Positions 567 to 45,977 of a DNA stretch of 64,000 bases are shown piece by piece; the stretch's first letter is position 1, and each line of letters opens with the position of its first letter. The translations under genes and the position numbers were made by a program. A model generated the notes under the pieces. It worked only from the letters and a program-made list of their open reading frames with translations. It was not told the DNA's origin and made no database searches. Source of the DNA: Candidatus Nomurabacteria bacterium RIFCSPHIGHO2_02_40_30 (GTDB lineage Bacteria > Patescibacteriota > Minisyncoccia > Phycocordibacterales > UBA9973); NCBI GenBank assembly GCA_001785445.1, contig MFTV01000016.1, forward strand, positions 6,259 to 70,258, read 5' to 3'.

Positions 567-2858
567 TTATATCTCACAAACACCAGACACACAAGCAAAT
601 TCTTTGGCACCGGTGGTATTGTCTGTCATTTCATATTGAGAGAGCTTAGAGAAATCAATTTTACCTATAGCTTTCGCACGTCTTTCATATTCTTCTTTAG
701 TGATAACTTCATAGGGGGCGAGCTGGTACACATGCTCGGAGCGTGGCAGAAAAGACATTCCTCCGACAAAATCCCAGTTTTCGTAAACAAAGTTCCCCAC
801 AGCCAGCCATTCATCCGGTCCCACGTAAATGGTTGCAGATGGATTGTGCTCCACAAAATGTTCTTTCAGCCTTTTCCATTCTTTCAATAAATCAAGCGCA
901 GTAACTTCGTCTTTGAATATTGCTCCTTCTGGCGCTTTGACCGGAAATTCTAAAACAAATGTGGTAGCAGAGTCGAGGGACTGGCCGACTTCCGGCACGC
1001 AAGGAATACCTTGGTCGCGAGCCATCTGCAGTAATGTGTCTGTGTGATTAATTCTAACTCTTCTCACAAAGTACGGAGCAAACCAAGGATGCATCCCAGA
1101 GCCGACAGCGAGGAGCTGACCGGAGTTGCCATGAGGTTTTACGCAAGTGATAGCGGTGGAAGCATTAATGCCGAAACGCTTGGCATATTTTTTATTTGTC
1201 TCAATAGAAGAAAGGCGCAGAGCATCGAGCACTTTGTCGTCTCTGATAACTGGATTATCGTAGTAACCGGTGAGCGATACCCCCAAGAGTCTTTCCGCCT
1301 CGCAATTCTCTTTCCATTTTTTTGAAAGGTAGCCGAAGTTTGTCAAAGTGGATTGGTATGTGCCAAGCAATGTCGCCAAGTCTATCTTTCTTTTAAGAGT
1401 TGCCACGGTATCCGAAGGGCGAATTACAATACTGGTAAGATTGCAAAATTGCTTAGAACGCAAATAAATTTCTCCGCAAGGATTTAATCCTACTTGTCTT
1501 TCGTCCTTGATAGCTTCCCACCTGCGAGCTGGTACTTGCTTCTCTAGTCCCCCACGATTGAAAATCCCGCGTTCGCCGGAGCGAGATTTTACTAATGCCG
1601 TCCATTCATTTAAAAATTCTTCGGCAGATGGCTTACTGTTATACACGGCTGAGTTGTTGGCCATAGAGCGCTGTCCTTCATTTAAGTAAAATTGCCCTTT
1701 CTTGGCATCTCGCATTTCTAAATCCTCAAGTTCGGACACGGAAATAAGAGCACTGCGTCTTACCCCGCCGGCTACCACAATCATGCCGATCTGGCAGATG
1801 ATGTCGTGCATATCCAAGTTGGAAAGGCGCCTGCCTTGTTTAGCTAAGATTTTTCTTTTAGCGAAATCCATCAAGTCCATCAGTGGCTGTGGTCCGGATG
1901 CTTTGCCACCGGCTGTCTCTAGGCGCGCTCCGGCTGGTCTGATATTAGAATAGTCAAATTTTATGTCTCTGCCATCAAACCAAGTTTTAAGTCCCAAAAC
2001 AAAAGCATCTGCCCAGCCTTCTTTGCTGTCGTGAACAATATGCATTATTGGTTTTTCTTTTACTTGTTTTTTAATTTGCGGAAACTGTTGGACATTTTCC
2101 CACTCCACGGCAAAGCCGAGCCCCGCGCCACACATGGAAACATACATAATTTCACCCAAATCTTGTGGACAAGTCGGAGCAATATACGAACAATTATAAG
2201 CCCAGACATTGGACTGGCGGCAAGCCTTGCCGGAAGACCATAAAAGCCGCATGGAAGGGCAAATATCTTGATTCAAGATAGCTTCTCTCACTTCGTCATA
2301 CTCTTTTTTAGAAAGCTTATCGCCCATATTCTCTTTCATATAGTCCATATATCGGTCGATAGTCTCTATCCAAGTTTCTCTGCGGCCCAGCTCCGGAATC
2401 CAGCGTGCGTAAAACTGATAAAAGATAAATTCTGAATAAGGACTGGCAAAATACTTACTGGATTCTTCCACGAGCGCTCTGGTCGCCTCTGGCACGGGTC
2501 CAAAAGCCGCGCGCAATTTTGAACGTTGGCTGCGATACAGAATATATTTTTTAGCCGTCTCGGTAAAACCTTTTTTCATCAATTCTTTCTCCACTAAATC
2601 CTGCGTCATTTCAACCGTCGGCAAAAATTTGGCTTTTTTATTTATATTCACCAGTTCAGTCCGCAAACCAAGCATTGTTTTAAAGACACTGTTAGCCACA
2701 ATGTTAGATTCTTCTTCTTTGCCTTCGCCTGTAACTTCAAAAGCTTTGAAAATAGCCCCAGCAATACGGCTTAAATCAAAAGCCACCACCTCGCCGGTTC
2801 TTCTTCTTATTGATTTTATTTTGGCTAAATCATTTTTTGAAATTTTTTCTTTTTTCAT
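567..2858 (-). CDS. nrdJ: Adenosylcobalamin-dependent (class II) ribonucleotide reductase with N-terminal ATP-cone
   Basis: 763 aa. ATP-cone-like N-terminus (IRRRTGEVVAFDLSRIAGAIFKAF), large RNR catalytic core, Cys-rich C-terminal tail (CVSGVCEI). Confidence 0.85.
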   Translation of the reverse strand: MKKEKISKNDLAKIKSIRRRTGEVVAFDLSRIAGAIFKAFEVTGEGKEEESNIVANSVFKTMLGLRTELVNINKKAKFLPTVEMTQDLVEKELMKKGFTETAKKYILYRSQRSKLRAAFGPVPEATRALVEESSKYFASPYSEFIFYQFYARWIPELGRRETWIETIDRYMDYMKENMGDKLSKKEYDEVREAILNQDICPSMRLLWSSGKACRQSNVWAYNCSYIAPTCPQDLGEIMYVSMCGAGLGFAVEWENVQQFPQIKKQVKEKPIMHIVHDSKEGWADAFVLGLKTWFDGRDIKFDYSNIRPAGARLETAGGKASGPQPLMDLMDFAKRKILAKQGRRLSNLDMHDIICQIGMIVVAGGVRRSALISVSELEDLEMRDAKKGQFYLNEGQRSMANNSAVYNSKPSAEEFLNEWTALVKSRSGERGIFNRGGLEKQVPARRWEAIKDERQVGLNPCGEIYLRSKQFCNLTSIVIRPSDTVATLKRKIDLATLLGTYQSTLTNFGYLSKKWKENCEAERLLGVSLTGYYDNPVIRDDKVLDALRLSSIETNKKYAKRFGINASTAITCVKPHGNSGQLLAVGSGMHPWFAPYFVRRVRINHTDTLLQMARDQGIPCVPEVGQSLDSATTFVLEFPVKAPEGAIFKDEVTALDLLKEWKRLKEHFVEHNPSATIYVGPDEWLAVGNFVYENWDFVGGMSFLPRSEHVYQLAPYEVITKEEYERRAKAIGKIDFSKLSQYEMTDNTTGAKEFACVSGVCEI

Positions 2859-3543: not shown

Positions 3544-3617
3544 ATTTTTAGTGTCCGTCCTCTTGGATTCGAACCAAGGACCCCAGAGGTATAAGCTCTG
3601 TGCTCTAACCAACTGAG
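3544..3617 (-). tRNA. tRNA-Ile with anticodon UAU
   Basis: Cloverleaf read by hand: acceptor CCGTCCT/AGGACGG, D arm GCTC-AGTTGGTTA-GAGC, anticodon stem CAGAG/CTCTG with loop CTTATAC (34-36 = TAT), T arm CTTGG-TTCGAAT-CCAAG, discriminator A. Confidence 0.7.
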
Positions 3618-3638
3618 CTAAGGACGGAAGATTGACTA

Positions 3639-6070: not shown

Positions 6071-6458
6071 GGGGATGCAAGGCATAGACAGTTGGTCTAT
6101 TTGCATTGATGCATACCGAGCATGAACATAACCTCGTAAAAATTTGTTCAAATGTTAATTGCAAAATTAGCTACTAAAGTGAAAAACGCTGTTTCTCCAT
6201 ACTTCGGTATGAATGACTTCGCTTTCGCTTCGGTTTCCGCTTACGCGTAACCGATGTCTCTCTTATAGACTTCCGATATATGAGATGGGGCATAATATTA
6301 TCGGGATAGGAGAAAGACTTTCCTGACTTTTTTCCAAAACAAAAGGAATCGATTAAAAAATATTTGGCTCGTTTCTTAATTTTTTAATTTAAACAAAAAG
6401 CGCGCTACGTATGTAGACTTCACTGCAAACTCCCTCTGCACTGGGATTCAATTTCCCA
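6071..6458 (+). ncRNA. ssrA: tmRNA (ssrA)
   Basis: 5' GGGGATG pairs with 3' CATCTCC (one G-U). tRNA-like T arm TGGGA-TTCAATT-TCCCA sits immediately before the acceptor 3' strand. Internal TGCATACCGAG...CCTCGTAAAAA resembles the conserved PK1/resume-region sequence of E. coli tmRNA. An alanine-rich tag frame ends ...FAFASVSAYA then TAA near 6246. Directly downstream of smpB. Confidence 0.7.
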
Positions 6459-6606
6459 CATCTCCACTCGACTCATTCTGTCTATGACAGAATTCGCTCG
6501 TGGCAAGCCACAGCGGAAAATACCCTGAAGAATTTGAAGGGTGTTTTGAGGCGAGTGCCCTGAGCGACGAGTTGAACGAGGAGTCGAATGGGCATATAAT
6601 CCTATT

Positions 6607-6889: not shown

Positions 6890-7399
6890 CTATTTTTGAC
6901 TCAAGTGCCAAGCTGTTTCAGTGCTTTTCTTTACCCCTTCACCAAGGTTCTCACCAAGTTTTAAAAATTCATCAATTATTTCAACTTTAGTTTGTTCTTC
7001 TTCAATTTTTTTGTTACCCCACATTAACTCTTTAAATTTAAAATGAGCAATTTTATTTCTAGAATCGTTTAGCTTTTTTAAAAAATTTATAAAGGGTTTC
7101 CATTGTGGCACATCGCTTCCATACAATTCAGTCATTTTCTCCATAATTTTTATTTTCCCCATAAAACTAATTTCCTCAAACACATATTCAAAAAATTCAT
7201 CACTCTTTGGCATACCTCCTAGTTTTGCCCAATTAGAAAGTTCTACCCACATAGCGGTAGTGGCTATTTGTTTTTCACATAAACAGGTAAGCCAAAAAAT
7301 AAAATTAACTGTTTCTATTTCTTTCTTAGTAATAGATAATTTATCTTCCACAGCACCCATTAGTCCTTTCAAATATTCGCTTTCTTTTTCAGTTTCCAT
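6890..7399 (-). CDS. Hypothetical protein with HEPN/Abi_2-like R-x4-H motif
   Basis: 169 aa. C-terminal LNDSRNKIAHFKF fits the Rx4-6H HEPN signature seen in Abi-type proteins. No other family signal. Confidence 0.35.
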   Translation of the reverse strand: METEKESEYLKGLMGAVEDKLSITKKEIETVNFIFWLTCLCEKQIATTAMWVELSNWAKLGGMPKSDEFFEYVFEEISFMGKIKIMEKMTELYGSDVPQWKPFINFLKKLNDSRNKIAHFKFKELMWGNKKIEEEQTKVEIIDEFLKLGENLGEGVKKSTETAWHLSQK

Positions 7400-7568
7400 G
7401 GAATTTATGTTAGCACATTAACCTACTATTTAATACTTTTATTGTGAGTAGCTTTTTGCAGGTTTTTATTGTTCTGATAGAAAAACCAAAACATAACTAG
7501 GCAACCTTTTAAGCGGTTCAGCAAATTTTCCCTCTTCTCCACAAAACAAAAATGCTATAATTAAATAT

Positions 7569-8264
7569 ATGGTAATACCAACAGAGTACGCTTACTTATT
7601 TGCCACTCTCCTATTTTTGGTTTTTTGGCTGGTGCTTTTTTATCACAGAAAAGATTTAAGAAAAGAAATGCTTTTCATGAGCATATGCATAGCGATAGCC
7701 GGACTTTTTGCCGAATATTTCTGGTGGACGACAGACTGGTAGCGGCCAATTACTATCACAGGGACAAAGATAGGCATTGAAGACTTTTTACTCGGATTTA
7801 CCAATGGAGGCATTGCCGCAGTTATCTTCGAAGAAATTTTTAAGGAGAGATTTTATAAAAGAAAAAATTTAGAGCGCCACTGGTCAGGAGTTTTTTTAAT
7901 TATCTTAAATTTTACTATCATGGCCGGCAGTTTTTGGTATTTACACTATACTTCTTTTTGGGCTACTACTTTTGGACTATTCATTACTGGGTCTTTGATT
8001 ATATTTTTTAGACACGACTTATGGATAGATGCAGTGATGAGCGGAGTTTTGGTAGCAGTATTATTTCTGCCATTCTATTGGATTTTAATTTTAATTTCTC
8101 CGGAAGGAACCATGGAGAAAATCTGGCTCTTTGAACACTTAACTGGAATAAAAATAACTGGTGTCCCACTCGAAGACATAGTCTTTTACTTTCTAGTTGG
8201 TTTCTCTGTGGGTCCTTTTTATGCCTACTGGCAAGGAGAAAGACTAAGGGCTTTTAAATCCTAG
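7569..8264 (+). pseudogene. Lycopene-cyclase-domain membrane protein interrupted by an in-frame TAG at 7740-7742
   Basis: A single reading frame runs 7569-8264 with one internal amber codon. Two repeats of the PxEE-type motif (IGIEDFLLGF and GVPLEDIVFYFLVGF) occur on either side of the stop. Extended -10 (TGCTATAAT) upstream. Confidence 0.5.
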
Positions 8265-8265
8265 T

Positions 8266-8294
8266 TTGACTTTATAGTCTAAATACGCTATATT
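8266..8294 (+). promoter_or_regulatory. sigma70-type promoter for infC operon
   Basis: TTGACT, 17-nt spacer, TATATT. Confidence 0.45.
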
Positions 8295-8314
8295 TCTCTA
8301 GTCAACTTAATCAC

Positions 8315-8821
8315 TTGCGTGAACGAATAAACAACCAAATACGTGCCAAAGAACTTCGGGTTTTGGACAGTGAAAACAAAAATCTCGGTATTTTAAGCAT
8401 AAGAGATGCCTTGGAATTAGCCCAAAGTAAGGGTCTAGATTTGATTGAAATTGCCCCAAATGCCAATCCCCCATTAGGTAAAATAATGGATTTCGGCAAA
8501 TATCAATACGAAGCGAACAAAAAACTGAAGAAATCCAAAGCCGGCGCAAAGCATACCGAGACCAAATCAATCCAGATAAAAATAGGCACCGGTGACCATG
8601 ACTTAGAGCTTAAAGCGAAAACAGCGTCCAAGTGGCTGAAAGAAGGCCACAGAATCAAAGTTGAACTTTTCCTTGCCGGACGCGCCAAGTATATGGATGA
8701 GAAATTCCTAAGGGAGCGATTAGACAGAGTACTGCATTTAATTACAGAAGAATATAAAGTTTCTGATAGCTATAAAAAGGGTCCGAAGGGCTTAACTACA
8801 ACCATAGAAAAAGCAAAATAA
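8315..8821 (+). CDS. infC: Translation initiation factor IF-3
   Basis: 168 aa, TTG start in ORF track. KELRVLDSENKNLGILSIRDALELAQSKGLDLIEIAPNANPP is typical of IF-3. Confidence 0.9.
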   Translation: MRERINNQIRAKELRVLDSENKNLGILSIRDALELAQSKGLDLIEIAPNANPPLGKIMDFGKYQYEANKKLKKSKAGAKHTETKSIQIKIGTGDHDLELKAKTASKWLKEGHRIKVELFLAGRAKYMDEKFLRERLDRVLHLITEEYKVSDSYKKGPKGLTTTIEKAK

Positions 8822-8835
8822 CAAAAAGCAAAATT

Positions 8836-9030
8836 ATGAAAGGAATGAAAACAAATAAATCATATAGCAAGAGGCTGAAGCTTACCAAAAACGGGAAGAT
8901 ACTTTCTCGCAAGCCCGGCTTTAACCACTTCAATGCCAAACAGTCTCGCACTAAACAGCTCGCCGGCCATAGGGGTCAAAGTTTTACTATCAAGAACAAG
9001 CCAAAATCACATTTATTACCATTTAGTTAA
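8836..9030 (+). CDS. rpmI: 50S ribosomal protein L35
   Basis: 64 aa, basic, MKGMKTNKSYSKRLKLTKNGKI...; canonical position between infC and rplT. Confidence 0.8.
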   Translation: MKGMKTNKSYSKRLKLTKNGKILSRKPGFNHFNAKQSRTKQLAGHRGQSFTIKNKPKSHLLPFS

Positions 9031-9038
9031 AACAAAAA

Positions 9039-9383
9039 ATGACACGAGTAAAAAAGGGAGTACATGCATTAAAAAGAAGGAGAAGTGTATTGAAGCAGAC
9101 TAAAGGCTTCCGCCATGGACGCTCTACTAAAGAGCGCCAAGCCAAAGACGCGCTTCTGCATGCCGGAGCTTATGCTTTCGCACATAGACGCGACAAGAAG
9201 TCGCATAACAGAAAGCTTTGGAATATCAAGATAAACGCTGGCAGCCGCGAGCTAGGCATGTCTTACTCACGATTCATCGATGCCCTTAAAAAGAAAAACA
9301 TATTGCTCGACCGTAAAATTCTGGCGGACTTTGCCGAGCATCACCCAAGAACTTTTGCAAAAGTCCTGGAAGCAGTTAAATAA
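9039..9383 (+). CDS. rplT: 50S ribosomal protein L20
   Basis: MTRVKKGVHALKRRRSVLKQTKGFRHGRS... is L20. Confidence 0.9.
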   Translation: MTRVKKGVHALKRRRSVLKQTKGFRHGRSTKERQAKDALLHAGAYAFAHRRDKKSHNRKLWNIKINAGSRELGMSYSRFIDALKKKNILLDRKILADFAEHHPRTFAKVLEAVK

Positions 9384-9404
9384 AGTTTGCTTCTTATTTT
9401 TATT

Positions 9405-9995
9405 TTAAATCTTGTATTCAGCTATTTTATCTTTTTTCACCAGAGCAATTACATCTTCCAAGAGCTTTTTGGGGTCTCCTCCTACAACAATTTTCGTATT
9501 AGGACGATGACTTTTTTCTATAATTTCCTCAAGCTGACCTCCCATCTCCCATGGTCCTTCAAAAATACCGATGGGTTTATTGTCTTCAAAGGCAATGGTA
9601 AATTCGTGAATAGTGCCGATACGTCCGCACCCGCAAATGACTGCATCACTCGAGCGAGTGAGGAGGATGTCGCGGCCGGCATACCCAAAGCCTGTATACA
9701 TAATTAAATCCATATAATCAAGCGGGAGCTTATAAACTTCCACATGCTCTTTTTCTGACGCCGCCGGTGATACGCCGATAGAAACTCCGCCTACTTCTTT
9801 CAGTCCCATCGCGACCCAAAGCGGAAAACCAGTTGTTGCTCCTGTTACCAGCACTGCCCCTTGGCGAGCAATCTCGCGACCGAGTTCTTTGGCCTTCTCT
9901 AATGCATCGAGACCGCAATGACCGGTCTCCGCCGCCCCAGAAACACAGATTTTTATCTGGCTGTGTCCGTGTTTAGTATTTAAAATAGATTCCAT
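9405..9995 (-). CDS. LOG/TIGR00725-family Rossmann-fold protein
   Basis: GAVLVTGATTGFPLWVAMGLKEVGGVSIGVSP...ICGCGRIGT pattern. Start trimmed to MESILNTK because the longer ORF overlaps the repeat element. Confidence 0.55.
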   Translation of the reverse strand: MESILNTKHGHSQIKICVSGAAETGHCGLDALEKAKELGREIARQGAVLVTGATTGFPLWVAMGLKEVGGVSIGVSPAASEKEHVEVYKLPLDYMDLIMYTGFGYAGRDILLTRSSDAVICGCGRIGTIHEFTIAFEDNKPIGIFEGPWEMGGQLEEIIEKSHRPNTKIVVGGDPKKLLEDVIALVKKDKIAEYKI

Positions 9996-10017
9996 GGAAA
10001 TATTATAGCATAATTGT

Positions 10018-10174
10018 GAAACTCGTCGAAGGCGCACTTTTTAGAAAGCCTTGCGCAGGAAATTAGAAAATAAAGAAAGTATTCTTTCTATTATTTTCTT
10101 GATTGACGAGGTTTCGCTCCGCAAGCTTGCGGAGATAGATTGCTTTATAAAAAGTTGTGCCAAGAAAGAGTTTC
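10018..10174. repeat. MITE-like intergenic element, copy A (7-bp terminal inverted repeats GAAACTC/GAGTTTC)
   Basis: Shares two near-identical blocks with copy B at 16981-17100, including the perfect 9-bp-stem palindrome CTCCGCAAGCTTGCGGAG. Copy A has a 56-bp internal insertion relative to B. Confidence 0.7.
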
Positions 10175-11551
10175 TTAGCAGTTAAGTGTCACGCTCTCCC
10201 CTTGCTCCGGCGCGTAAGCATTAATGCCTAAATTGTCGCGCAGTTTCTGCACTAAAAACAAAGCTCCCTTCGGCTCCCCCATGACCACAAAAACCTTTTT
10301 AACTGAATCTTGCATATCTTCGACAAAGTTAATTAATTCATCCGAATCTTTATGTCCCGAGTATCCTGAAATTGTGACAACGTGTGCTCGAACTACCACA
10401 TCTTCCCCTGTTATACGGACAGTCTTTACTCCCTCTTGAATTAAACGCCCCGGAGTGCCTACAGCCTGATAGCCGGTTAGAAGCAGGGTATTGTTGGGGT
10501 CCGGCAAGTAATGTCTTTCATGGTGCACAATGCGTCCCCCTGTGGACATGCCGCTCCCAGCGATAACTATTTTAGGATTTGGCACATTGCCGATCATTTT
10601 CGACTCTTCTGACTTCAGAGTACTATGCAGTCCCGAAAAATCAAATAAATACTTGTCGCTCTTCATCGCCTTTTGAGCATTTTCGTTGAAATAACTTTTA
10701 TATTGTTTAAAAACTTCAGTTAAACGAATAGCGAGTGGTGAGTCGAGGAAAATAGGCATAATGGGTATTCGGTTATTTTCCACCAAAGCATTAAGTTCAA
10801 AAAGAAGTTCCTGCGAGCGTTCGAGTGAAAAAGTGGGTATGATAAGTGTTCCCTTTCTTTTGTAGTTGTCTTCAATTATTTCCTCTAATAATTTCCTGCG
10901 GTCATCCCTAGACTCATGATTTCTGTCACCATACACAGACTCCATTACCAAATAATCCACACCGGCAACTTTTTCAGTATCCGGCAGGATCGGTGAAGGA
11001 CTGTTGCCCAAATCTCCGGTAAAAAGAATTTTCTTGCCATTATAAACAAACAAAATCATAGCGGAACCTAAAATATGACCGGCGTTAAAAAAAGAAACTT
11101 CCAGACTAGAAGTTATCTTTATTTTTTCATGATACTCAAAACCTTGCCAGAGAGATAAAGCCAGCTTAACATTCTCCGGCGTGTAAATTTTATCCAACCC
11201 CAAGTCTTTATTTTTCTGCAGTATCTGCATAGTGTCCTCGAGCATCGGCAATGCCAGCCCCTTGGTTGGCAGAATAGAATAAATTTTTCCGCGAAAGCCT
11301 TCACTGATGAGTTTGGGGATGCGGCCCAAATGGTCCACATGCGCATGAGTAATAAAAAGGATGTCCACTTCTTTCGGGTTATAAGTAAATGGGTCCCAGT
11401 TAATATCGTCTGCCAATTTTTCCCCTTGAGTCAGCCCACAGTCAACCAATATTTTTTTACCGTCGGCCTCAAAAAGGAAATTCGAGCCCGTGACTGAGCC
11501 TGTTCCCCCGTAAAAAGTTATTCTGACTGTTTTATTTGCTGTTTTTCCCAT
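10175..11551 (-). CDS. beta-CASP family MBL-fold ribonuclease (RNase J/TTHA0252-like)
   Basis: HAHVDH metallo-beta-lactamase motif and beta-CASP region. About 458 aa without the RNase J C-terminal domain. Confidence 0.7.
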   Translation of the reverse strand: MGKTANKTVRITFYGGTGSVTGSNFLFEADGKKILVDCGLTQGEKLADDINWDPFTYNPKEVDILFITHAHVDHLGRIPKLISEGFRGKIYSILPTKGLALPMLEDTMQILQKNKDLGLDKIYTPENVKLALSLWQGFEYHEKIKITSSLEVSFFNAGHILGSAMILFVYNGKKILFTGDLGNSPSPILPDTEKVAGVDYLVMESVYGDRNHESRDDRRKLLEEIIEDNYKRKGTLIIPTFSLERSQELLFELNALVENNRIPIMPIFLDSPLAIRLTEVFKQYKSYFNENAQKAMKSDKYLFDFSGLHSTLKSEESKMIGNVPNPKIVIAGSGMSTGGRIVHHERHYLPDPNNTLLLTGYQAVGTPGRLIQEGVKTVRITGEDVVVRAHVVTISGYSGHKDSDELINFVEDMQDSVKKVFVVMGEPKGALFLVQKLRDNLGINAYAPEQGESVTLNC

Positions 11552-11904
11552 AAATAAAGAATAGCACATAACCCACCTAATAAATCAAAGAATATATCTG
11601 AAGCAGTATCAACTATATTAAACTGTTCCTTCGCGATAATATTCAAAAAGAATTCGAAAGCCTCCCATAATACTCCAATTAATAAAACACCTAAAATAAC
11701 AGTTAGAATTTGCTTCAAAAAAAGATTTTCATTGTAAAAAACATACAAGAAAAAAAGCCCTACCCAAAAGCCACTTAAAAAGTGCATGATTATGTCAAAA
11801 TACCAAATGGTAAAATACCAATAAAACTCTTGCGCTATTAAATTCAGTATAAAAAGAAAAAACATCAGAAACACTAGATGTTTTAAAATCCTTTTCCTAT
11901 TCAT
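11518..11904 (-). CDS. Small membrane protein (VanZ-like motif D-x3-D-x2-GG, uncertain)
   Basis: 128 aa, 4 TM. WEAFEFFLN...DTASDIFFDLLGG near the C-terminus. Confidence 0.4.
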   Translation of the reverse strand: MNRKRILKHLVFLMFFLFILNLIAQEFYWYFTIWYFDIIMHFLSGFWVGLFFLYVFYNENLFLKQILTVILGVLLIGVLWEAFEFFLNIIAKEQFNIVDTASDIFFDLLGGLCAILYLWEKQQIKQSE

Positions 11905-11929
11905 AGCAACATTTTAGCACATTTCTAAG

Positions 11930-11950
11930 AAAAAACCCCGCGCGACGGGG
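11930..11950 (-). terminator. Rho-independent terminator (CCCCG-tcgcg-CGGGG then T6) about 25 nt upstream of the 11904 start codon
   Basis: Perfect 5-bp GC stem followed by TTTTTT on the minus strand. Confidence 0.6.
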
Positions 11951-12084
11951 TGCCTTCTTAGGACTATTTCTAATGTATTACCGTAGCTCAAAGCTAAGTG
12001 GGTGCTAGACGCGTGAGGCCAAGACCAAAAGCGATCGAAGCTCCCATAAAATAGTGTTCTAGGTAATAATTGGAAATAACCCTA
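11951..12084 (-). ncRNA. Candidate small RNA or cis-regulatory leader (function unknown)
   Basis: Minus-strand TTGCCT-16 nt-TATACT promoter at 12090-12117; about 155-nt transcript ending at the terminator above, with no ORF. Sits between the HAD hydrolase stop and the membrane-protein start. Confidence 0.3.
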
Positions 12085-12170
12085 CTTAAAGTATAGCAAG
12101 TATAAAAACTAAGGCAACTAGACAAGAATAATTTTCTGTTTTTGAATGAGATTGCAACTAAAAATGCCTA

Positions 12171-12764
12171 TTACGGCATATATTGCTTCATTTTTTCTTT
12201 GAAATCTTCAAAAGATGTGTAAAGTTCTGTCTGTATGCCAAAATCTTTCGCTCCTTGTATGTGTCCGGCTGTGTCGTCCCAAAATAATATTTCTTCTTTT
12301 TGTATATTTTTTAAATCTTCAAATATTTTTAGGAAAAATTCTTGATTTGGTTTTTTGTGCCCTAAATGAGCAGAGGAATATGTCTTATCAAAACTATTTT
12401 TGAAACCCATCTTGTTGAGCATATACTCAAAACGGTACCTTTCGTTGTTAGTAGCTAAAAAACATAATATTCCTTTATGTCTTAAACCTTGTATATACTC
12501 TACCAATTCTGAATTTATCTTATGTTCACGCTCAAACCAATATTCCATAAAAGCGTCTAGGCCTTTATTCCAGCCCCAGAGAGTTAAATAAGGGGAAATG
12601 GTTTCTTTTAAGTCACACTTACCCACTAAACAATCTTGAAACGGTCCATTGAAGAATGGGAGAGTTTTTTCTATAGTAATTCCGTAGTCTTTCTCAAGAG
12701 CGACACTAAATCTCTCTTGATTTGTCAGTAAACCATCGGCGTCAAAAATAACTACTTTTATCAT
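12171..12764 (-). CDS. HAD-superfamily hydrolase
   Basis: VIFDADGLL DxD motif. 197 aa. Confidence 0.8.
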   Translation of the reverse strand: MIKVVIFDADGLLTNQERFSVALEKDYGITIEKTLPFFNGPFQDCLVGKCDLKETISPYLTLWGWNKGLDAFMEYWFEREHKINSELVEYIQGLRHKGILCFLATNNERYRFEYMLNKMGFKNSFDKTYSSAHLGHKKPNQEFFLKIFEDLKNIQKEEILFWDDTAGHIQGAKDFGIQTELYTSFEDFKEKMKQYMP

Positions 12765-12775
12765 TAGAAAATATT

Positions 12776-13360
12776 TTACTCATCCACCCCAAAGCGCTTA
12801 TAGTCGTATGTTGTACTATTGCCAAACCAGTGCTTGATTTCGTGTTCCGCTTCTTCGGGAGTTTCTGAACAGTGCATGATATTCATCACTGCTCGCTTTT
12901 CCTTATTAGCCATAGCCGGAGAATCAATAGAGAAGTCTCCACGAATAGTGCCCACGGCTGACTTATAAGGCAATGTATCACCTGCAATCTTTCTAACCAC
13001 ATCTACTGCATGTGTACCCTGGACTACCATTTTCACCAGTGGAGCTGACTTCATATAGTCAATGAGCCATTTTCTTATTTCAGGGCCAATTTTAGAAGTA
13101 TCAGTCGTCCCAAAATCTGCCAGCATATCATAGCCGTACTTTTCGTACGTAGACTTAGTTTTCTCTCCAAGTCTGGTAATCCACGCTTCGTCTTTTGGAT
13201 AATGATCGTTGAGCTGTTCATGTTCCGGTTGAAACATCTCAAGCGCTACAACTTTAAGATCTCGTCGCTCAAATCTGCTTATGACTTCGCCTATTAACCC
13301 TTTCCTAACCCCATCAGGTTTAATCATGACATATGTCTTCTCTTCCTTTGGATGTTTCAT
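12776..13360 (-). CDS. ndk: Nucleoside diphosphate kinase (long form)
   Basis: KTYVMIKPDGVRKGLIGEVISRFE and NIMHCSET match NDK signatures. Confidence 0.8.
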   Translation of the reverse strand: MKHPKEEKTYVMIKPDGVRKGLIGEVISRFERRDLKVVALEMFQPEHEQLNDHYPKDEAWITRLGEKTKSTYEKYGYDMLADFGTTDTSKIGPEIRKWLIDYMKSAPLVKMVVQGTHAVDVVRKIAGDTLPYKSAVGTIRGDFSIDSPAMANKEKRAVMNIMHCSETPEEAEHEIKHWFGNSTTYDYKRFGVDE

Positions 13361-13405
13361 ATTTGGGTATTCTAGCAGAAAAAATTACTTTTGCAAAATT
13401 AAAAA

Positions 13406-16189
13406 TTACTCCATACTCTTATACCTGCCCATGATTTCGGCTTCTACTTCGGCGCGGTCGCGACCGTATTTTATATAAGAAAGTTCTTTCAAGCTGTCTA
13501 CTATACCTACAGTACCCTTTTCAGGGGCTAAAGTTTTCAAATTAAAAGGCTTGGTCGGCTGGCCATTGACCAGCATGCTCATGTAGGCATTGTAATTATC
13601 AAGTTTAGTTATATCTTGGGCCGTAAATTGAGGCTTAAATTTCGGCTCGAGAAAACTCGCATCTTCAGTGCCCACGCGGAATACCGCCATAGAGCCGACA
13701 TTGCCGAAAACAGCATTTTTAATATTTTCTTCCAATTGGGTAATATATTGATGAGCAATGTTAAGAGAAAGCCTGTATTTGCGAGCTTCAGACAAGATAG
13801 AAGCAATAGAATCAGTGGTAACATTCTGGAATTCGTCAATGTATAAATAAAAATCATTCATGGGTTTACCGAACATATCCACGCGCGAGAGCGCCGCCAT
13901 TTGAATCTTGCCCACCAGCACCAAACCAATCAAATTCGCATTAATATCTCCGAGCCTGCCCTTGGAAAGATTAACCAAGAGAATCTTTTTCTCATCCATT
14001 ATTTTACGAAAATTAAAAACAGAGTTCTGCTGCAGCACTACCGGACGCATAATGTCGTTGGAAATAAAATTATCAAATTTTGAAGAAATATACGGCACGA
14101 AGTTTGCCAAAGACTGGTCGCCTGTCGTCTGTTCGGCCGAAACCCAGAATTGTTTGATGATAGGATTCTGGCATCTAGCTAATTTCAAATCTCGAAATTG
14201 TTTATCAGCCAGCACTCTGGTAATCTCTAAGAGAGTCGAGCCCGACTCCGGATCCTCCATTACCAGAAAGGCGCTGTTTCTGAAATATTGTTCGAACATT
14301 GCCCCGCCACCGACTTTCATATCAAAAAGTTTGTTGAAGATTCCCATCATTTCATTTACCACGAAAGTTTTCTGCTCCGGATATTTCGGATCATACTCAA
14401 GCATATTTAGCCCAATAGGACGAGCTGTATAAGCAGGGTCGAAATATATTACATCATCAATACGTTCTTTTGGAATTCGCGACAAAATAGTCTGAATGTC
14501 TGTGCCGTGCGGGTCAATATAACAGCAACCGTCACCATTCTTGATGTCCTGCGTAATCATATTGAGCATAATATTGGTCTTGCCGGTGCCCGTCTGGCCT
14601 ATGCAATAGAAATGCCGCATCCGGTCTTCCCGAGCCATGTGGATTTCCGTGTCTTTGCCTCGGTAACTATTAACCCCTAAGACTATGCCGGCAGTACCCA
14701 TCTCAAGTGGCGCAGGGGCAATACCAGCCTTGGCTTCTTTCAGTTGGGGCTGGCTGCCTATGCCTATAGGGAAATGAAATACCGAAGCCAGCTCTTTCAA
14801 ATTCATAGGTAAAATTTTATCAGGTGAAAAAGAACGGTAGGAAAAGTCATGGAAAAGTTTTTTCAAAATACTGCCCTGAGCTTTTTCGAAAACAAAAGAT
14901 TGACTGGCGGCTTCGGAAAATTGATTAAAGGAGGACTCTATCTCGGTTAGTATCGCTTCTGCCCGCTCAATGCTCTCACCGGAAGCAATGACGCGAATAT
15001 TAGCCTTCATGATAGTGCTTTTCATCTTATTGCCTATTTTTTCGGTGGCGCCTTCATCCACCGCTTTTCGGCCCGGAGTGTATTTTTCATCTTTTTCCCC
15101 CTTTTTTTCTTTTACACCAAAAAGAAGCTCTTTGCCAACGGAGAGGAAAGCTTTATGAAATTTATAAAAATTATCCGACGCATGTTTGACAGACATACCA
15201 CTTTTTACGTCATCTAGAATCATATGGAATTCGTTTATGAATTTATTGCCCGCGGGCGCCACTACGAGCTGGATCGCGGCGCCTTCGCCTTTGGTCTTTA
15301 ACTTAGAGAAAACATTTAGTATCGTATTCATGGGGTCATGATCTATATTGTCGTAAGTCTTGATAGGCATAACTTCACGCTGTGAGAATGCGCCATAGGC
15401 TCCAGCTGAACCGCCTTTTTCGTTAAAAATATTATAGTCATCCGTAACTTCGCGGATTTTAGCATTATGATAAAAAGCTAAAATTTGTTTTTCAAAAAGT
15501 GAAAGATGTTTATTCGGAATTCCGGCATAGACAACCACTTCATCACTTTGGTTGCCAAGCGCAACTTCAAGAGTGAAGTAAATTTCTTTGGCATTACTTT
15601 TGCCTTCGGAAATAGACTGCATTCCTGCGTAAAATTGCTCCATCGCGCCGATGAATTCTTTAAAGCCTTTTGACTTGTCGGCTTCGTCCATCGGTGGTGG
15701 CAAAGTTATTTCAAAAAGGGTCATATGCAGAGACTTATACATGGGTGTACCTTCCTTGAAACCAATTTCTACTTGACCTGTTTTAAGATACTGAATCAAG
15801 ATTCTATGGAAATCGTCATCCACATGCGGGTTACCCATGGATTCTACAACTGCAAGCGCATTTTTAACCCCTTTTGTTATGACAATACCCAGAAGTTCTT
15901 CCATCACAGCATCATGTGGCTCGGGTTTCAGAGCCAGAACTATGTCTTCTGTTTGTTTTTTTTCTAAAATACTATTTTTATGTATTACCTCTTCTATGGG
16001 TATATTCTTGTATGCGCCTACCACGTCCTGCACTGCATTGTCTTTGGCATTCTCAAAGTGGCCTAGTGTTACTAGTTCTTCTTCGCGCTTTCTAACATGC
16101 GCGCGCAAATAGTCGAGCTCTTCTTCTGGAGTCCTAAACTTCGGCATTTCCCTAAAAAATGACGGATGCATTGCTCTTAAATTATACAC
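13406..16189 (-). CDS. Large P-loop ATPase, VirB4/TraG/HerA (AAA_10/DUF87)-like C-terminal half with uncharacterised about 500-aa N-terminal half
   Basis: 927 aa. Walker A GQTGTGKTNIML, Walker B YLYIDEFQNV, distal ARKYRLSLNIAHQ motif typical of VirB4/TraG-type ATPases. Confidence 0.55.
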   Translation of the reverse strand: MYNLRAMHPSFFREMPKFRTPEEELDYLRAHVRKREEELVTLGHFENAKDNAVQDVVGAYKNIPIEEVIHKNSILEKKQTEDIVLALKPEPHDAVMEELLGIVITKGVKNALAVVESMGNPHVDDDFHRILIQYLKTGQVEIGFKEGTPMYKSLHMTLFEITLPPPMDEADKSKGFKEFIGAMEQFYAGMQSISEGKSNAKEIYFTLEVALGNQSDEVVVYAGIPNKHLSLFEKQILAFYHNAKIREVTDDYNIFNEKGGSAGAYGAFSQREVMPIKTYDNIDHDPMNTILNVFSKLKTKGEGAAIQLVVAPAGNKFINEFHMILDDVKSGMSVKHASDNFYKFHKAFLSVGKELLFGVKEKKGEKDEKYTPGRKAVDEGATEKIGNKMKSTIMKANIRVIASGESIERAEAILTEIESSFNQFSEAASQSFVFEKAQGSILKKLFHDFSYRSFSPDKILPMNLKELASVFHFPIGIGSQPQLKEAKAGIAPAPLEMGTAGIVLGVNSYRGKDTEIHMAREDRMRHFYCIGQTGTGKTNIMLNMITQDIKNGDGCCYIDPHGTDIQTILSRIPKERIDDVIYFDPAYTARPIGLNMLEYDPKYPEQKTFVVNEMMGIFNKLFDMKVGGGAMFEQYFRNSAFLVMEDPESGSTLLEITRVLADKQFRDLKLARCQNPIIKQFWVSAEQTTGDQSLANFVPYISSKFDNFISNDIMRPVVLQQNSVFNFRKIMDEKKILLVNLSKGRLGDINANLIGLVLVGKIQMAALSRVDMFGKPMNDFYLYIDEFQNVTTDSIASILSEARKYRLSLNIAHQYITQLEENIKNAVFGNVGSMAVFRVGTEDASFLEPKFKPQFTAQDITKLDNYNAYMSMLVNGQPTKPFNLKTLAPEKGTVGIVDSLKELSYIKYGRDRAEVEAEIMGRYKSME

Positions 16190-16974
16190 TAAACCTTCGT
16201 CAAAATCTCTGGATCATTTTCTGTAATCAATATTGTGTGTTCAAAATGGGCGCTTCGTTTGCCATCAGCAGTGTGAAATGTATAGCCATCTTTATCTAAA
16301 GTTACATTTTTTGTGCCATTGTTGAGCATCGGCTCGATGGCTATGACCATCCCTGGCACAAGCTTGGCGCCTGTCCTGGCTTTGCCAAAATTCGGTATAT
16401 AAGGGTCCTCATGTATGGCTCGCCCCACTCCATGCCCAGCCAAGACTTCCACAATGCCGTATTTCTTTTTCTCTGATTTTCCTTTTGAACGAACAAACTG
16501 CTCTATGGCGTAGCCTATGTCCCCCACGGTGTTGCCAACTCTCGCCATATTTATACCCACTTGTAGAGCTTGCTCTGTCACTGCCATAAGCTCCATGCTT
16601 GCAGAGTTTACCTTGCCTACAGGCGCAGTGAGTGCCATGTCCGTAAAAAGCCCTTTGTGTTTTACCCCTAAATCAATAGACACAATATCTCCCTCTTTTA
16701 AAATTCTGTTTCCTTTAGGAATACCATGAACAACTTCGTCGTTGACTGACACACATAGTGATGCAGGGAACGGAATCTTAGCTCCTTCTGGTTTATAATT
16801 TAGAAATGCAGGCTCATCACCCATTTCTCTAATTAACTTAAGAGCATACAAGTCTAATTCTTTCGTGGAAACCCCCACGGCAATTTTGTCCCGCACTTTG
16901 TACAGGACAGTCGCTAAACGTTTCCCGCATTCTCGCAGTATTTTTATCTCTTCTGGTGTTTTGATTATTATCAT
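16189..16974 (-). CDS. map: Methionine aminopeptidase type I
   Basis: Full-length MAP with metal-binding D/H/E residues. 261 aa. Confidence 0.95.
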   Translation of the reverse strand: MIIIKTPEEIKILRECGKRLATVLYKVRDKIAVGVSTKELDLYALKLIREMGDEPAFLNYKPEGAKIPFPASLCVSVNDEVVHGIPKGNRILKEGDIVSIDLGVKHKGLFTDMALTAPVGKVNSASMELMAVTEQALQVGINMARVGNTVGDIGYAIEQFVRSKGKSEKKKYGIVEVLAGHGVGRAIHEDPYIPNFGKARTGAKLVPGMVIAIEPMLNNGTKNVTLDKDGYTFHTADGKRSAHFEHTILITENDPEILTKV

Positions 16975-17104: not shown

Positions 17105-17794
17105 TTATGAAATTATTGTCCCTAGAAATTGCTCCCCATTTAGACACTTGGTCAAATTATCAATCGGCTTGCCGTTCATTATCATTACTTGGATGCCTTC
17201 TTTTTGCGCTACTTCCGAAGCCACTGGGTCAAATGGAGAGCTTAGCCTCGAGGTCCATTGCGCAGGTATAATTGCTCGATAATCAGCCCAAGAAATTTTC
17301 TCAATTTTTTTGGCGTCCGGATTTACCTTGGGGTCTTTATCGTAGACATAATCAATATTGGAAAGATTTATGATTTTTTTGGCCTTCAAGTGCTTGGCCG
17401 CCAGCACGGCATCCCAGTCTGTGCTTTTCCCCGGCTCGTAGGCGGAGCCTATGACTACATTTTTTTCAAAAGAAAAAGGAACACCCAAGTTGGCTATCAC
17501 TTTATTATGAGCAACATCTGCGAAAATAACACGGAGCAACTCCGCATTGAGCTTCAGTGACGCAATGCCTATCCAGTCTAAGTCTTCACTAGTCGGACTC
17601 CCAAGTTCTTTGGCCACTTTATTATACCTGCGATTAATTTCTCCTCCGCCGGTTATAATTACAAATTTTTTACGCTGATTGTTATCTTTGGCAACATGCG
17701 AAAGTATTAAAGCTTTAAATTCTTTTAAAAAATCTATGTCTATGCTGTCGGGTACTATAAGTGAGCCGCCCAGTGAAATTATTATTGTTTCCAT
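17105..17794 (-). CDS. pyrH: UMP kinase, archaeal type
   Basis: IISLGGSLI amino-acid-kinase fold N-terminus. About 229 aa, typical of archaeal-type UMPK. Confidence 0.7.
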   Translation of the reverse strand: METIIISLGGSLIVPDSIDIDFLKEFKALILSHVAKDNNQRKKFVIITGGGEINRRYNKVAKELGSPTSEDLDWIGIASLKLNAELLRVIFADVAHNKVIANLGVPFSFEKNVVIGSAYEPGKSTDWDAVLAAKHLKAKKIINLSNIDYVYDKDPKVNPDAKKIEKISWADYRAIIPAQWTSRLSSPFDPVASEVAQKEGIQVMIMNGKPIDNLTKCLNGEQFLGTIIS

Positions 17795-17797
17795 GTG

Positions 17798-18385
17798 TTA
17801 ATACCCTAAAGCTTTAATAATATCTTTATGAACATCCGGTATAGATTGCTCTCCATTAATTGTGTAAATTGTGTAACCCGTTTTATTTTTGAAATAATTC
17901 ATCGCCGGAACCACATTGTTTATATATTCATCAAATCTTTTGGCAATGCCTTGTACTGTGTCATCACTTCTACCCCGTAATAAATTTCTGTTCATTGCTT
18001 CCTCTTTACCCACTTCAATATAAATAACACTTACTTTGTCGTGCTTGAAAAACTTCATCATTTGTTCAAAAAGTTCTGATTGCGGCACTGTGCGAGGATA
18101 GCCGTCAGCCACCAGATTCTTTTCGGCTGTCAGAGAAGAGATGAGGATGTTGGTAAAAATTGCATCGGTTAAAAAGTCCGCTACCAACTCTCCCCGAGCT
18201 ATGGTGTCTTTTATCAAATTTCCCGTATAACTCCCAGAAGCTATCAATGACCTGAAGCCTTCACCAGTGCCAGCATATACAGACTCTAATCCGCCTTTAG
18301 ACTTGAGATATTCCATCAAGAGCTTCACTTGTGTCCCCTTACCGGAACCCACTATTCCAAAAAATACAAATGCCTGTGGTTTCAT
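17798..18385 (-). CDS. adk: Adenylate kinase (start trimmed to MKPQAFVFFG)
   Basis: P-loop GIVGSGKGTQ. Confidence 0.8.
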   Translation of the reverse strand: MKPQAFVFFGIVGSGKGTQVKLLMEYLKSKGGLESVYAGTGEGFRSLIASGSYTGNLIKDTIARGELVADFLTDAIFTNILISSLTAEKNLVADGYPRTVPQSELFEQMMKFFKHDKVSVIYIEVGKEEAMNRNLLRGRSDDTVQGIAKRFDEYINNVVPAMNYFKNKTGYTIYTINGEQSIPDVHKDIIKALGY

Positions 18386-18407
18386 CTGTGTTATAATAAC
18401 ACAAATC

Positions 18408-18974
18408 ATGAAAAAAGAAATCATCACTATTTGCGGAGGGCTCGGCAGTGGCAAGTCCAGCACGGCGAAGAAAGTTGCGCAAACTTTAGGCTATAAGCAT
18501 TTCTCTTCCGGAGACTTTTTTCGAGAAGTGGGGCTGAAGCTTGGGCTGTCAGTCAACGAAGTCAACATACGAGCCGAGACTGACCCCAGAATAGATGAAA
18601 TGACTGACCAGAAACTGCGCGACATGGGCAAAGAAAATAAAGTTGTCATAGATTCTCGCACTGCCTACCACTGGATACCAGAATCTTTTAAAGTTTATCT
18701 TGACTTGCCGACAGAAATAGCCAAGGGAAGAATCTTAAATAGTGTCAAGGCGGATAAATTACGCGAGCAGTCCGAGCAAGTATCAACTAGTGAAGAAGTC
18801 TTTCAAAAAATGCATGAACGGTTCCAAAGCGAGCAAAAGAGATATTGGGATTTATATAAAATAAATAATACTGACAAAAACCAATTTGACCTCGTAGTAG
18901 ACACAAACAAAAACAATCTTGAGCAAGTTGTCGCTATCGTCGTATCAGAATACAAAAAGTGGAGAGAAAAATAA
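18408..18974 (+). CDS. cmk: Cytidylate kinase family protein
   Basis: ITICGGLGSGKSSTAKKVAQTLGY P-loop. Start trimmed from the over-extended ORF 18267. Confidence 0.75.
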   Translation: MKKEIITICGGLGSGKSSTAKKVAQTLGYKHFSSGDFFREVGLKLGLSVNEVNIRAETDPRIDEMTDQKLRDMGKENKVVIDSRTAYHWIPESFKVYLDLPTEIAKGRILNSVKADKLREQSEQVSTSEEVFQKMHERFQSEQKRYWDLYKINNTDKNQFDLVVDTNKNNLEQVVAIVVSEYKKWREK

Positions 18975-33851: not shown

Positions 33852-34655
33852 CTAGTTAGTTTGGTATTTTCTAATTTCTTCGCAAAGTTTTTGCGCTTCT
33901 TTTTTAGGGTCTTCGGAGAAGATAATTCCGCGGGAAGAATTAATCATAAGTCCTAGTCCATCGCTATCCAAGCCATTTCTCATGACCATCTCCAAGTCTC
34001 CTCCTTGAGATCCAATACCTGGTACCAAGAATGTTGCACCTGTCATACTTCGAGCTTCTTTCATTTCCTCAGGATGCGTTGCTCCCATAACAATCATACA
34101 ATTATTGTTTGTATTCCATTTAGTAGATACATTCTCAACAACTTGTTGCCAAAGTTTTTTACCTCCACCTACATCTAAATTTTGAAATTCTCCTGCCCCA
34201 GGATTTGAGTTTAAAGCTAAAACACTAGAAATCTTATCGATCCTATTAAGAAATGGCTGTACTGCCTCTTGACCCAAGTATGGATTAATAGTTATTCCGT
34301 CAACTTTTAATAAATCAAAGGCTTCAGTTACATAGCCTGTATTAGTATTACCAACATCAGCTCGTTTTGCGTCTAACATTATAAAAATATCAGGATGATT
34401 TTTTTGTATGTAGTCAGTTGTCATTTGTAACTCTGATATACCTTTGGCCCCTTTAGCTTCATAAAAAGCAATATTAGGCTTGTATGCTGCGGCATATTCG
34501 TGAGTTTCATTAATAATATATTTATTAAATTCAAATTGTGGAAACGGCGTTGCCTTAAATTTCTCTGGAATCTTTTCAAAATCAGGATCTAGCCCCACGC
34601 ATAAAAGTGAATTTATTTTCTTTGCTCTTTTATTGTATTTGTCTATTGCGCTCAT
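33852..34655 (-). CDS. pyrF: Orotidine-5'-phosphate decarboxylase
   Basis: CVGLDP...DAKRADVGNT motifs. 267 aa. Confidence 0.85.
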   Translation of the reverse strand: MSAIDKYNKRAKKINSLLCVGLDPDFEKIPEKFKATPFPQFEFNKYIINETHEYAAAYKPNIAFYEAKGAKGISELQMTTDYIQKNHPDIFIMLDAKRADVGNTNTGYVTEAFDLLKVDGITINPYLGQEAVQPFLNRIDKISSVLALNSNPGAGEFQNLDVGGGKKLWQQVVENVSTKWNTNNNCMIVMGATHPEEMKEARSMTGATFLVPGIGSQGGDLEMVMRNGLDSDGLGLMINSSRGIIFSEDPKKEAQKLCEEIRKYQTN

Positions 34656-35288: not shown

Positions 35289-35294
35289 GTTGTT

Positions 35295-45952: not shown

Positions 45953-45977
45953 AAAGTTATATTGTATACTCTACTAT

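Follow-up and report, generated by a model that had tools for sequence, protein, structure and literature searches.

A probable anchor-less type IV coupling-protein homologue with a DUF8128 domain, encoded between map and ndk in Nomurabacteria

Results

A large ATPase gene in a ribosomal and nucleotide-metabolism locus

The window analysed here (the whole stretch of DNA, 64 kb of contig MFTV01000016.1 from Candidatus Nomurabacteria bacterium RIFCSPHIGHO2_02_40_30) covers the str/S10/spc ribosomal super-operon together with nucleotide-metabolism genes, and our subject is one large open reading frame (ORF) in it that encodes a P-loop ATPase. The genes for EF-G, EF-Tu, the ribosomal-protein operons, SecY, adk, an AA_kinase-family gene and map lead up to the ORF, and ndk, a HAD hydrolase, a beta-CASP nuclease, FtsH, ribonucleotide reductase, thymidylate synthase and pyrD/E/F-like genes lie past it; the RNA genes of the window are one transfer-messenger RNA (tmRNA) and five tRNAs. 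An initial annotation, made from the letters alone, had described the ORF as a solitary ATPase of T4SS (type IV secretion system) or HerA type, with map and ndk as neighbours and an unrecognisable N-terminal half of about 500 residues. The frame is real and unbroken, and the neighbours are those it had named (Table 1). Moreover, a Pfam scan of 30 window ORFs, all the largest among them, brought up no gene for a T4SS or pilus component, a relaxase or an integrase, in agreement with the annotation's statement that no T4SS or pilus genes are nearby.

The ORF product is 100% identical to KKR00358.1 (UT27_C0018G0003) of Candidatus Nomurabacteria bacterium GW2011_GWD2_39_12, a member of the Paceibacteria (Patescibacteria, or candidate phyla radiation, CPR), and its UniRef name is 'DUF8128 domain-containing protein'. 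The frame opens with a GTG codon, and an ATG at 16171, 18 nt further on, gives a 921-residue product starting MHPSFFREMPKF. Since the orthologue N-termini read M-x-x-SFFKEMPKF, in agreement with this start, and since 921 residues is the annotated length of several 100%-identical database entries, the ATG is probably the real start. The ORF thus either overlaps map by 1 nt (GTG start) or is separated from it by 18 nt (ATG start). A promoter and terminator scan, whose matches occur at chance-level counts, returned no terminator-like site between map and the ORF and one promoter-like site in the gap ahead of ndk. The GC (guanine plus cytosine) content is unremarkable, and there is no second copy of the ORF within the window.

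Table 1. Coordinates of the ORF, its parts and its adjoining genes (positions in the window; residues counted from the GTG)
Feature	Coordinates	Strand	Remarks
map (methionine aminopeptidase)	16189..16974	minus	directly upstream; map stop overlaps the ORF GTG by 1 nt
Whole ORF (KKR00358.1)	13406..16189	minus	927 residues from GTG 16189, unbroken; stop codon 13406..13408
N-terminal extension	15752..16189	minus	residues 1-146; predicted all-helical, soluble; no Pfam or PDB sequence match
DUF8128 (PF26449) alpha/beta domain	14780..15742	minus	residues ~150-470; disordered loop ~355-374; TrwK/VirB4 N-terminal-domain fold predicted
RecA-like P-loop nucleotide-binding domain, VirB4/VirD4 (FtsK-HerA) superfamily	13520..14692	minus	residues ~500-890
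Walker A GQTGTGKT	14576..14599	minus	residues 531-538; invariant in family alignment
All-alpha insertion between Walker A and Walker B	13994..14374	minus	residues ~606-732; position of the TrwB all-alpha domain
Walker B YLYIDEFQNV	13820..13849	minus	residues 781-790; D785 and E786 invariant
Distal motif ARKYRLSLNIAHQ	13748..13786	minus	residues 802-814; inside the TraG-D_C Pfam match; R803 and Q814 invariant
Two C-terminal helices	13418..13510	minus	residues 894-924, past the nucleotide-binding domain
ndk (nucleoside-diphosphate kinase)	12776..13360	minus	45 nt downstream of the ORF stop

The full-length AlphaFold2 model, computed from a diverse alignment (predicted local distance difference test score, pLDDT, 86.2), has four parts: a helical extension (~9-136), an alpha/beta part (~150-470), the P-loop part (~500-890) with its insertion, and two C-terminal helices. 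No transmembrane (TM) helix was found anywhere in the protein by hydropathy, the best 19-residue Kyte-Doolittle mean being 1.54 overall and 1.25 within the N-terminal 154 residues.

The ATPase half groups with coupling proteins by sequence

The Walker A, Walker B and distal motifs that the initial annotation had pointed out are all present, and the catalytic Walker residues are invariant in the family alignment. In Pfam, the ATPase half matches TraG-D_C (23.9 bits, cut-off 22) and TrwB_AAD_bind (21.6 bits, cut-off 20.5), both by narrow margins, and DUF87 weakly; in NCBIfam, it gives only partial matches to TraD/VirD4-type families, far under their cut-offs (44 versus 366 bits), and a weak CedD match at the Walker A region. 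A profile built from 44 family sequences and run against the sequences of the PDB placed TrwB and DotL at the top. The VirB4 families AAA_10, CagE_TrbE_VirB, TraC_F_IV and P-loop_TraG did not match the protein in Pfam or NCBIfam, and BLAST of the ATPase half against the VirB4 proteins of plasmids that carry relatives returned an E value of 0.26 or nothing. These profiles put the ATPase half among type IV coupling proteins (T4CPs) and away from VirB4.

The predicted structure gives a less one-sided picture. The insertion between the Walker motifs is helical in the model, like the all-alpha domain of T4CPs, and the superposition of TrwB on the full model spans ~433 columns (target-normalised TM-score 0.67); TrwK, a VirB4, aligns over ~919 columns of the same model (both with Foldseek). 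The assignment to T4CPs thus rests on sequence and on the gene context of relatives, since by fold the protein resembles VirB4 at least as well. The similarity to HerA is limited to the ATPase fold, and the protein does not have the FtsK/SpoIIIE set of an FtsK_SpoIIIE motor, an N-terminal polytopic membrane domain and a gamma domain.

Most of the N-terminal half is a DUF8128 domain with a VirB4-like fold

Precomputed Pfam assignments place PF26449 (DUF8128) on the exact database entry and on 120 of the 120 homologues listed. Our own scans of the N-domain returned no family because the Pfam copy used lacked the PF26449 model. The fold search of the N-terminal half that the initial annotation had proposed, which we ran with Foldseek, gave the VirB4 N-terminal domain as best match, with no HerA chain among the matches listed (the AlphaFold2 model of the N-domain has a pLDDT of 83). 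Residues ~150-470 are therefore predicted to fold as a VirB4-type N-terminal domain. A matching likeness in sequence was not found: with hhalign, the DUF8128 profile matched two VirB4 proteins from plasmids at probabilities below 1%, and we have dropped the idea of sequence-level homology between DUF8128 and the VirB4 N-domain, the likeness being at the level of the fold alone.

Residues 1-146 carry the conserved motifs PExHD (89-93) and NPHxxDDFHRxLVxY (120-134), and are restricted to the class of soluble homologues of ~920 residues described below. They matched no family when 24 members were scanned singly against Pfam and a profile was run against the PDB sequences. An HD-type metal or nuclease site, which PExHD and PHxxDDFHR had brought to mind, is unsupported by these same empty searches. 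The words 'unrecognisable' and 'novel' that were first applied to the whole N-terminal half thus fit residues 1-146 alone, the remainder being DUF8128.

Relatives include plasmid coupling proteins and a membrane-anchored sister class

A tblastn search with the ATPase half against 72,556 plasmids gave 408 records, with E values down to 1e-60 and identities up to 33%, from hosts that include Bacillus, Streptomyces and relatives, haloarchaea and Sulfolobus. The records are annotated as 'type IV secretion system DNA-binding domain-containing protein', 'TraM recognition domain-containing protein' or 'DUF87 domain-containing protein'. The closest relatives with an interpretable gene context are two such plasmid proteins, WP_128472464.1 of Bacillus licheniformis (885 residues) and WP_331738717.1 of Embleya (812 residues); both have DUF8128 as well. 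They adjoin a gene of the 'replication-relaxation family' (a relaxase family), and their clusters also encode conjugal-transfer proteins, PrgI (VirB3-like), an NlpC/P60 hydrolase and a separate ATPase, identified as the VirB4 of the system by its matches to AAA_10 (E 2e-116) and P-loop_TraG. In the ATPase half, the two relatives are 26-28% identical to the ORF product, and when the DUF8128 profile was aligned with their N-terminal regions by hhalign, the probabilities were 97.9% (E 5e-13) and 96.8% (E 2e-10). This indicates that DUF8128 followed by a T4CP-type ATPase is the layout of a real coupling-protein subclass of monoderms and not a quirk of this genome. Like the window protein, the Bacillus relative is without a TM helix (Kyte-Doolittle 0.37).

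An exhaustive search with residues 1-500 gave 971 cluster representatives, whose full-length members split into two classes: proteins of ~900-930 residues that align from about residue 15, and proteins of ~800-840 residues that align from about residue 150. The shorter proteins have one strong TM helix (Kyte-Doolittle 2.2-3.2) immediately ahead of DUF8128, and the longer ones, the window protein included, have no TM segment anywhere. The soluble extension therefore stands where the other class has its membrane anchor. Between the two classes, identity is 46-55% over the ATPase half and ~29-31% over DUF8128; as the plasmid coupling proteins reach 26-28% over the ATPase half, we take the classes to be sister paralogues.

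One member of the TM-anchored class (P0254; GCA_046766295.1, JBJNWA010000004.1, 10001-12415) is annotated as 'type IV secretory pathway TraG/TraD family ATPase VirD4' and lies in a same-strand, unannotated cluster (6933-16573), next to a gene for an FtsQ-like POTRA protein and together with genes for a 597-residue protein predicted to have ~8 TM segments, for a number of small membrane proteins and for a 529-residue protein with one N-terminal TM or signal segment. The cluster may be an undescribed envelope or translocation module. In one Nomurabacteria metagenome-assembled genome (MAG), an extra T4CP-like ATPase of 496 residues without DUF8128 (locus L015, 4813-6303) lies ~3.7 kb upstream of the main gene; it shares 34% identity with residues 494-887 and adjoins two unannotated ORFs of ~560-580 residues and the gene for a treble-clef zinc-finger protein. 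A 395-residue Sulfitobacter plasmid protein is a similar ATPase-only form.

Viral relatives are remote. IMG/VR yielded just three distant matches, to the ATPase part only, and distant homologues with 20-24% identity occur in SPO1-like Bacillus phages and in Geobacillus phage TP-84. The family phrog_5156, of unknown function, matches residues 155-927 (window 13409-15725) over its positions 27-812 of 824 with an E value of 8e-77; this match concerns remote relatives, and shows that proteins with DUF8128 and the ATPase exist in Firmicutes phages or prophages. On these grounds we dropped a viral association of the window gene.

A T4SS is encoded elsewhere in the same genome

The distribution of T4SS components in this phylum has been surveyed in 3,035 Patescibacteria genomes (Quinonero-Coronel et al. 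2025; PMC12102498). VirB4 was found in 2,417 of them and VirD4-type T4CP homologues, 5,713 in number, in 2,918 genomes, of which only 148 homologues lay near virB4; relaxases were almost absent, and the authors raise exaptation of the T4CP homologues as a possibility (PMC12102498). Table S3 of the survey lists KKR00358.1 itself as a T4CP (profile t4cp1, 88% coverage, VirB4 proximity 'No'), so that its affiliation to T4CPs is already published (PMC12102498). The same table answers the genome-wide search for T4SS genes that had been suggested at the outset: the genome that encodes KKR00358.1 (GCA_000993455.1) has VirB3 (KKR02066.1), VirB4 (KKR02068.1), VirB2 homologues and two 't4cp2' hits, away from the ORF (PMC12102498). 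The VirB4 lies two genes from the VirB3 homologue, and both are distinct from KKR00358.1. The ORF is thus solitary within the window alone and not genome-wide. That a stand-alone T4SS-like component of a CPR genome deserves attention was a reasonable proposal, and one that the literature had already raised (PMC12102498). Altogether, the first observation is partly confirmed and its interpretation partly supported, and the protein is less mysterious than first thought.

The gene is inherited as part of the Paceibacteria core

A scan of one genome per species gave 567 relatives, and we counted neighbours at the best 80 loci (51-85% identity). These 80 are all annotated as Paceibacteria-type organisms, namely Nomura-, Yonath-, Taylor-, Campbell- and Zambryskibacteria and Parcubacteria. 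The same-strand order secY-adk-(AA_kinase)-map-[gene]-ndk-beta-CASP is found in 55-57 of the 80, down to 51% identity, with ndk kept downstream in 57 and the beta-CASP nuclease in 49; the position between map and ndk is thus kept across Paceibacteria genera and families. Across identity bins, the gene keeps pace with SecY, map and FtsH in its conservation and is better conserved than adk and ndk (closest bin: 83% for the gene, 82% for SecY, 75% for map and 60% each for adk and ndk). The gene is under strong purifying selection; it is a vertically inherited core gene, and not the cargo of a mobile element.

Other features of the window

Nucleotide metabolism is unusually dense for a CPR genome (window 567-2858, 33852-36359, 45876-46811, 17105-18974 and 12776-13360), with genes for a class II-like ribonucleotide reductase, orotidine monophosphate decarboxylase, a phosphoribosyltransferase, a protein like dihydroorotate dehydrogenase and thymidylate synthase, and also adk, the AA_kinase-family (pyrH-like) gene, a cmk-like gene and ndk; a SLOG/LOG-like gene lies in the window as well. 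The adk ORF (17798-18463, minus strand, GTG start, 221 residues) overlaps, by ~200 nt, a cytidylate-kinase-like ORF (18267-18974, plus strand) at the latter's 5' end, and the first ~27 residues of the adk ORF as listed are hydrophobic filler ahead of the P-loop (MKPQAFVFFGIVGSGKGT). Both ORFs, each listed with a GTG start, are probably over-extended at their 5' ends. ARAGORN places a tRNA-Ile with anticodon TAT at 3553-3627, between FtsH and a gene adjacent to the ribonucleotide reductase, and a full-length tmRNA lies at 6071-6469 (Rfam, 120 bits). An ORF of 568 residues at 61325-63031 has a weak C-terminal match to a treble-clef zinc finger (zf_Tbcl_2) as its sole match; a related zinc-finger protein is encoded at L015 37-1236, close to the extra ATPase paralogue of that locus.

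Discussion

We lean, a little beyond an even chance, towards the reading that the protein is a cytoplasmic, anchor-less member of a DUF8128 subclass of coupling proteins of the VirD4/TrwB clade, domesticated as a ring motor for a constitutive core function, most probably at a T4SS-like apparatus or at the membrane module of a paralogue. The parts of this reading deserve different degrees of trust: identity and architecture we consider highly probable, and far less secure is any tie to such an apparatus. Compared with T4CPs of the VirD4/TrwB family (TrwB of R388, DotL, Cag-beta, TraD), the window protein is without the N-terminal TM domain and its gene does not accompany relaxase or T4SS genes; relative to TrwB-type proteins, it has ~470 extra N-terminal residues, made up of the helical extension and DUF8128. 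Some Gram-positive T4CPs are likewise without a TM anchor. With the plasmid DUF8128 coupling proteins it shares the two modules in the same order. Unlike them, it has the additional extension of 146 residues, and its gene is chromosomal, in the spc operon, with no relaxase nearby, whereas theirs stand beside relaxase-family, PrgI and AAA_10 VirB4 genes. The TM-anchored paralogues of ~800 residues are the closest sister class, with DUF8128 and the ATPase half in common and a TM helix in place of the soluble extension; the one examined belongs to a cluster of membrane-protein genes, and the window gene to a housekeeping operon.

By analogy with TrwB, VirB4 and HerA, the protein would form an ATP-driven ring, probably a hexamer, that threads or hands over a polymer. 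DUF8128 may serve as a module for docking and oligomerisation, as suggested by the R388 machine, in which the N-terminal domains of VirB4 join protomers in pairs and contact VirB3 and VirB8 at the membrane (PMC12857230). The helical extension could have taken the place of the membrane anchor as an element that recognises a partner or a substrate. The domesticated motor would most probably recruit or energise a substrate at the T4SS-like apparatus that these epibionts encode on the chromosome without a relaxase; a different site of action might be the membrane module of the TM-anchored paralogue, which is known from other Patescibacteria. Plasmid conjugation would not be its role.

Several points weigh against this reading. 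T4CP homologues occur in more Patescibacteria genomes than VirB4 does (2,918 against 2,417 of the 3,035; PMC12102498), and at least one close Nomurabacteria MAG has a t4cp1 hit and no VirB4 call, MAGs being incomplete. In Southlakia epibionticum, the t4cp homologue is non-essential and the T4SS genes are essential. No physical or genetic link joins the protein to a T4SS, the survey giving its VirB4 proximity as 'No', and the protein is without the membrane anchor found in most characterised coupling proteins. In fold, TrwB is no closer to either half than VirB4 is. The oligomeric state, substrate and partners of the protein are inferred.

The first alternative is a housekeeping motor, independent of any T4SS, that handles DNA or RNA in the cell and has no part in a secretion channel; it might, for instance, supply nucleases, and thence nucleotide salvage, with imported or damaged nucleic acid, or act in handling the chromosome. 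We hold this to be unlikely. In its favour are the fixed place in the secY-adk-map operon with conservation at the level of SecY, the solubility of the protein, the retention of ndk (57 of 80) and of the beta-CASP nuclease (49 of 80) downstream, and a window rich in nucleotide metabolism (ribonucleotide reductase, thyA, pyrD/E/F-like genes, adk, cmk, AA_kinase and the SLOG/LOG-like gene). T4CP homologues that are commoner than VirB4 and unlinked to it, and one that is dispensable where the T4SS is essential, also fit such a motor. There is a precedent in Crenarchaea, where machinery derived from a T4SS was domesticated for DNA import: CedB and CedD of the Ced system are chromosomal, paralogous ATPases of the FtsK-HerA superfamily with N-domains like that of VirB4. 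They have TM helices, are placed in the HerA clade and respond to DNA damage by induction, and their likeness to the window protein is in the P-loop only. As ATPases of a domesticated T4SS-like machine, they are a precedent for the favoured reading as well. Against the alternative, the argument from neighbours is one of guilt by association, and ndk may have its own promoter. Bacterial spc operons normally end in adk and map. Neither a nucleic-acid-binding nor a nuclease domain was detected in the protein, the candidate HD-type site being unsupported; the fold shared by DUF8128 and the VirB4 N-terminal domain is known for docking membrane complexes and not for binding DNA; and the viability of S. 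epibionticum is unaffected by deletion of comEC.

It is improbable, to our mind, that the protein is instead a second, highly divergent VirB4-type ATPase, acting in the Patescibacterial T4SS as a subunit for assembly or as one of an outer-ring-like kind. This reading is favoured by fold and not by sequence or context. The alignment of TrwK to nearly the full model speaks for it, as do the C-terminal helices past the nucleotide-binding domain, which have been reported to be typical for VirB4 and lacking in T4CPs, and the fact that VirB4 itself is soluble in many systems. However, no VirB4 sequence family matches the protein, whereas the plasmids with its relatives have VirB4s that do match those families, and BLAST and hhalign comparisons with these plasmid VirB4s came back empty. 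From TrwK of R388 and the VirB4 of Thermoanaerobacter pseudethanolicus it likewise differs in having no sequence-family match to VirB4. The VirB4 profile of the survey chose another protein in the genome, encoded next to VirB3 and VirB2, and the t4cp1 profile chose KKR00358.1; the plasmid relatives, moreover, hold the position of the coupling protein beside the relaxase.

A repair or division translocase of the HerA/FtsK type, or a HerA-like defence ATPase, is very improbable. HerA has a HAS-barrel and a NurA or other effector partner; the fold search found no HAS-barrel in the window protein, its N-domain matching VirB4 best, and NurA, Sir2 or another effector partner was not found among its neighbours. 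A position conserved for so long in a housekeeping operon is also unlike a defence island, and we dropped the defence reading, for which PADLOC offered just weak matches, to mad8 and to the HerA P-loop. Least credible of all is the coupling protein, or a decaying remnant of one, from an integrated conjugative or mobilisable element: membership of the T4CP family by sequence and a MOBC relaxase hit in a conspecific genome (GCA_000994625.1; Table S3, PMC12102498) would suit it, but the conserved synteny between map and ndk across Paceibacteria genera and families effectively refutes it, and the unremarkable GC content, the lack of integrase, relaxase or T4SS genes among the 30 window ORFs scanned, the intact ORF and motifs under strong purifying selection, and the near-absence from viral contigs all tell against it.

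A bolder scenario, which we think has a poor chance of being right, would have a conjugative coupling protein in Paceibacteria, one that retained the ancestral VirB4-like two-domain plan, lose its anchor and gain a helical domain of 146 residues, to become a near-essential cytoplasmic motor independent of the T4SS. Such a motor would be co-expressed with SecY, Adk and Map, possibly for the handling of nucleic acid in the nucleotide salvage on which such reduced epibionts rely. If this were true, it would be the first housekeeping translocase derived from a coupling protein, and the DUF8128 family would be a living intermediate between VirB4 and VirD4.

Returning to the favoured reading of a domesticated coupling protein, we found no paper on DUF8128 or PF26449 in the open-access literature, and coupling proteins with a VirB4-like N-domain are not described in two recent reviews of T4SSs. 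The VirB4-like N-domain on coupling proteins, the soluble class, the new extension that it carries and its position in the spc operon thus appear to be undescribed so far. Coupling-protein homologues are present in ~96% of the Patescibacteria genomes surveyed (2,918 of 3,035) and almost never adjoin virB4, and at least one of these homologues is of the DUF8128 type, sharing the layout of real plasmid coupling proteins. The VirB4-like N-terminal fold of DUF8128 bears on the divergence of VirB4 and VirD4, with a whole coupling-protein subclass that keeps the two-domain plan of VirB4, and in Paceibacteria a soluble derivative with a new N-terminal domain behaves as a core housekeeping gene. With its domain boundaries and its paralogues as controls, the protein offers a concrete test case for whether such homologues are cytoplasmic delivery motors for an essential, relaxase-less T4SS or a reuse of the coupling protein.

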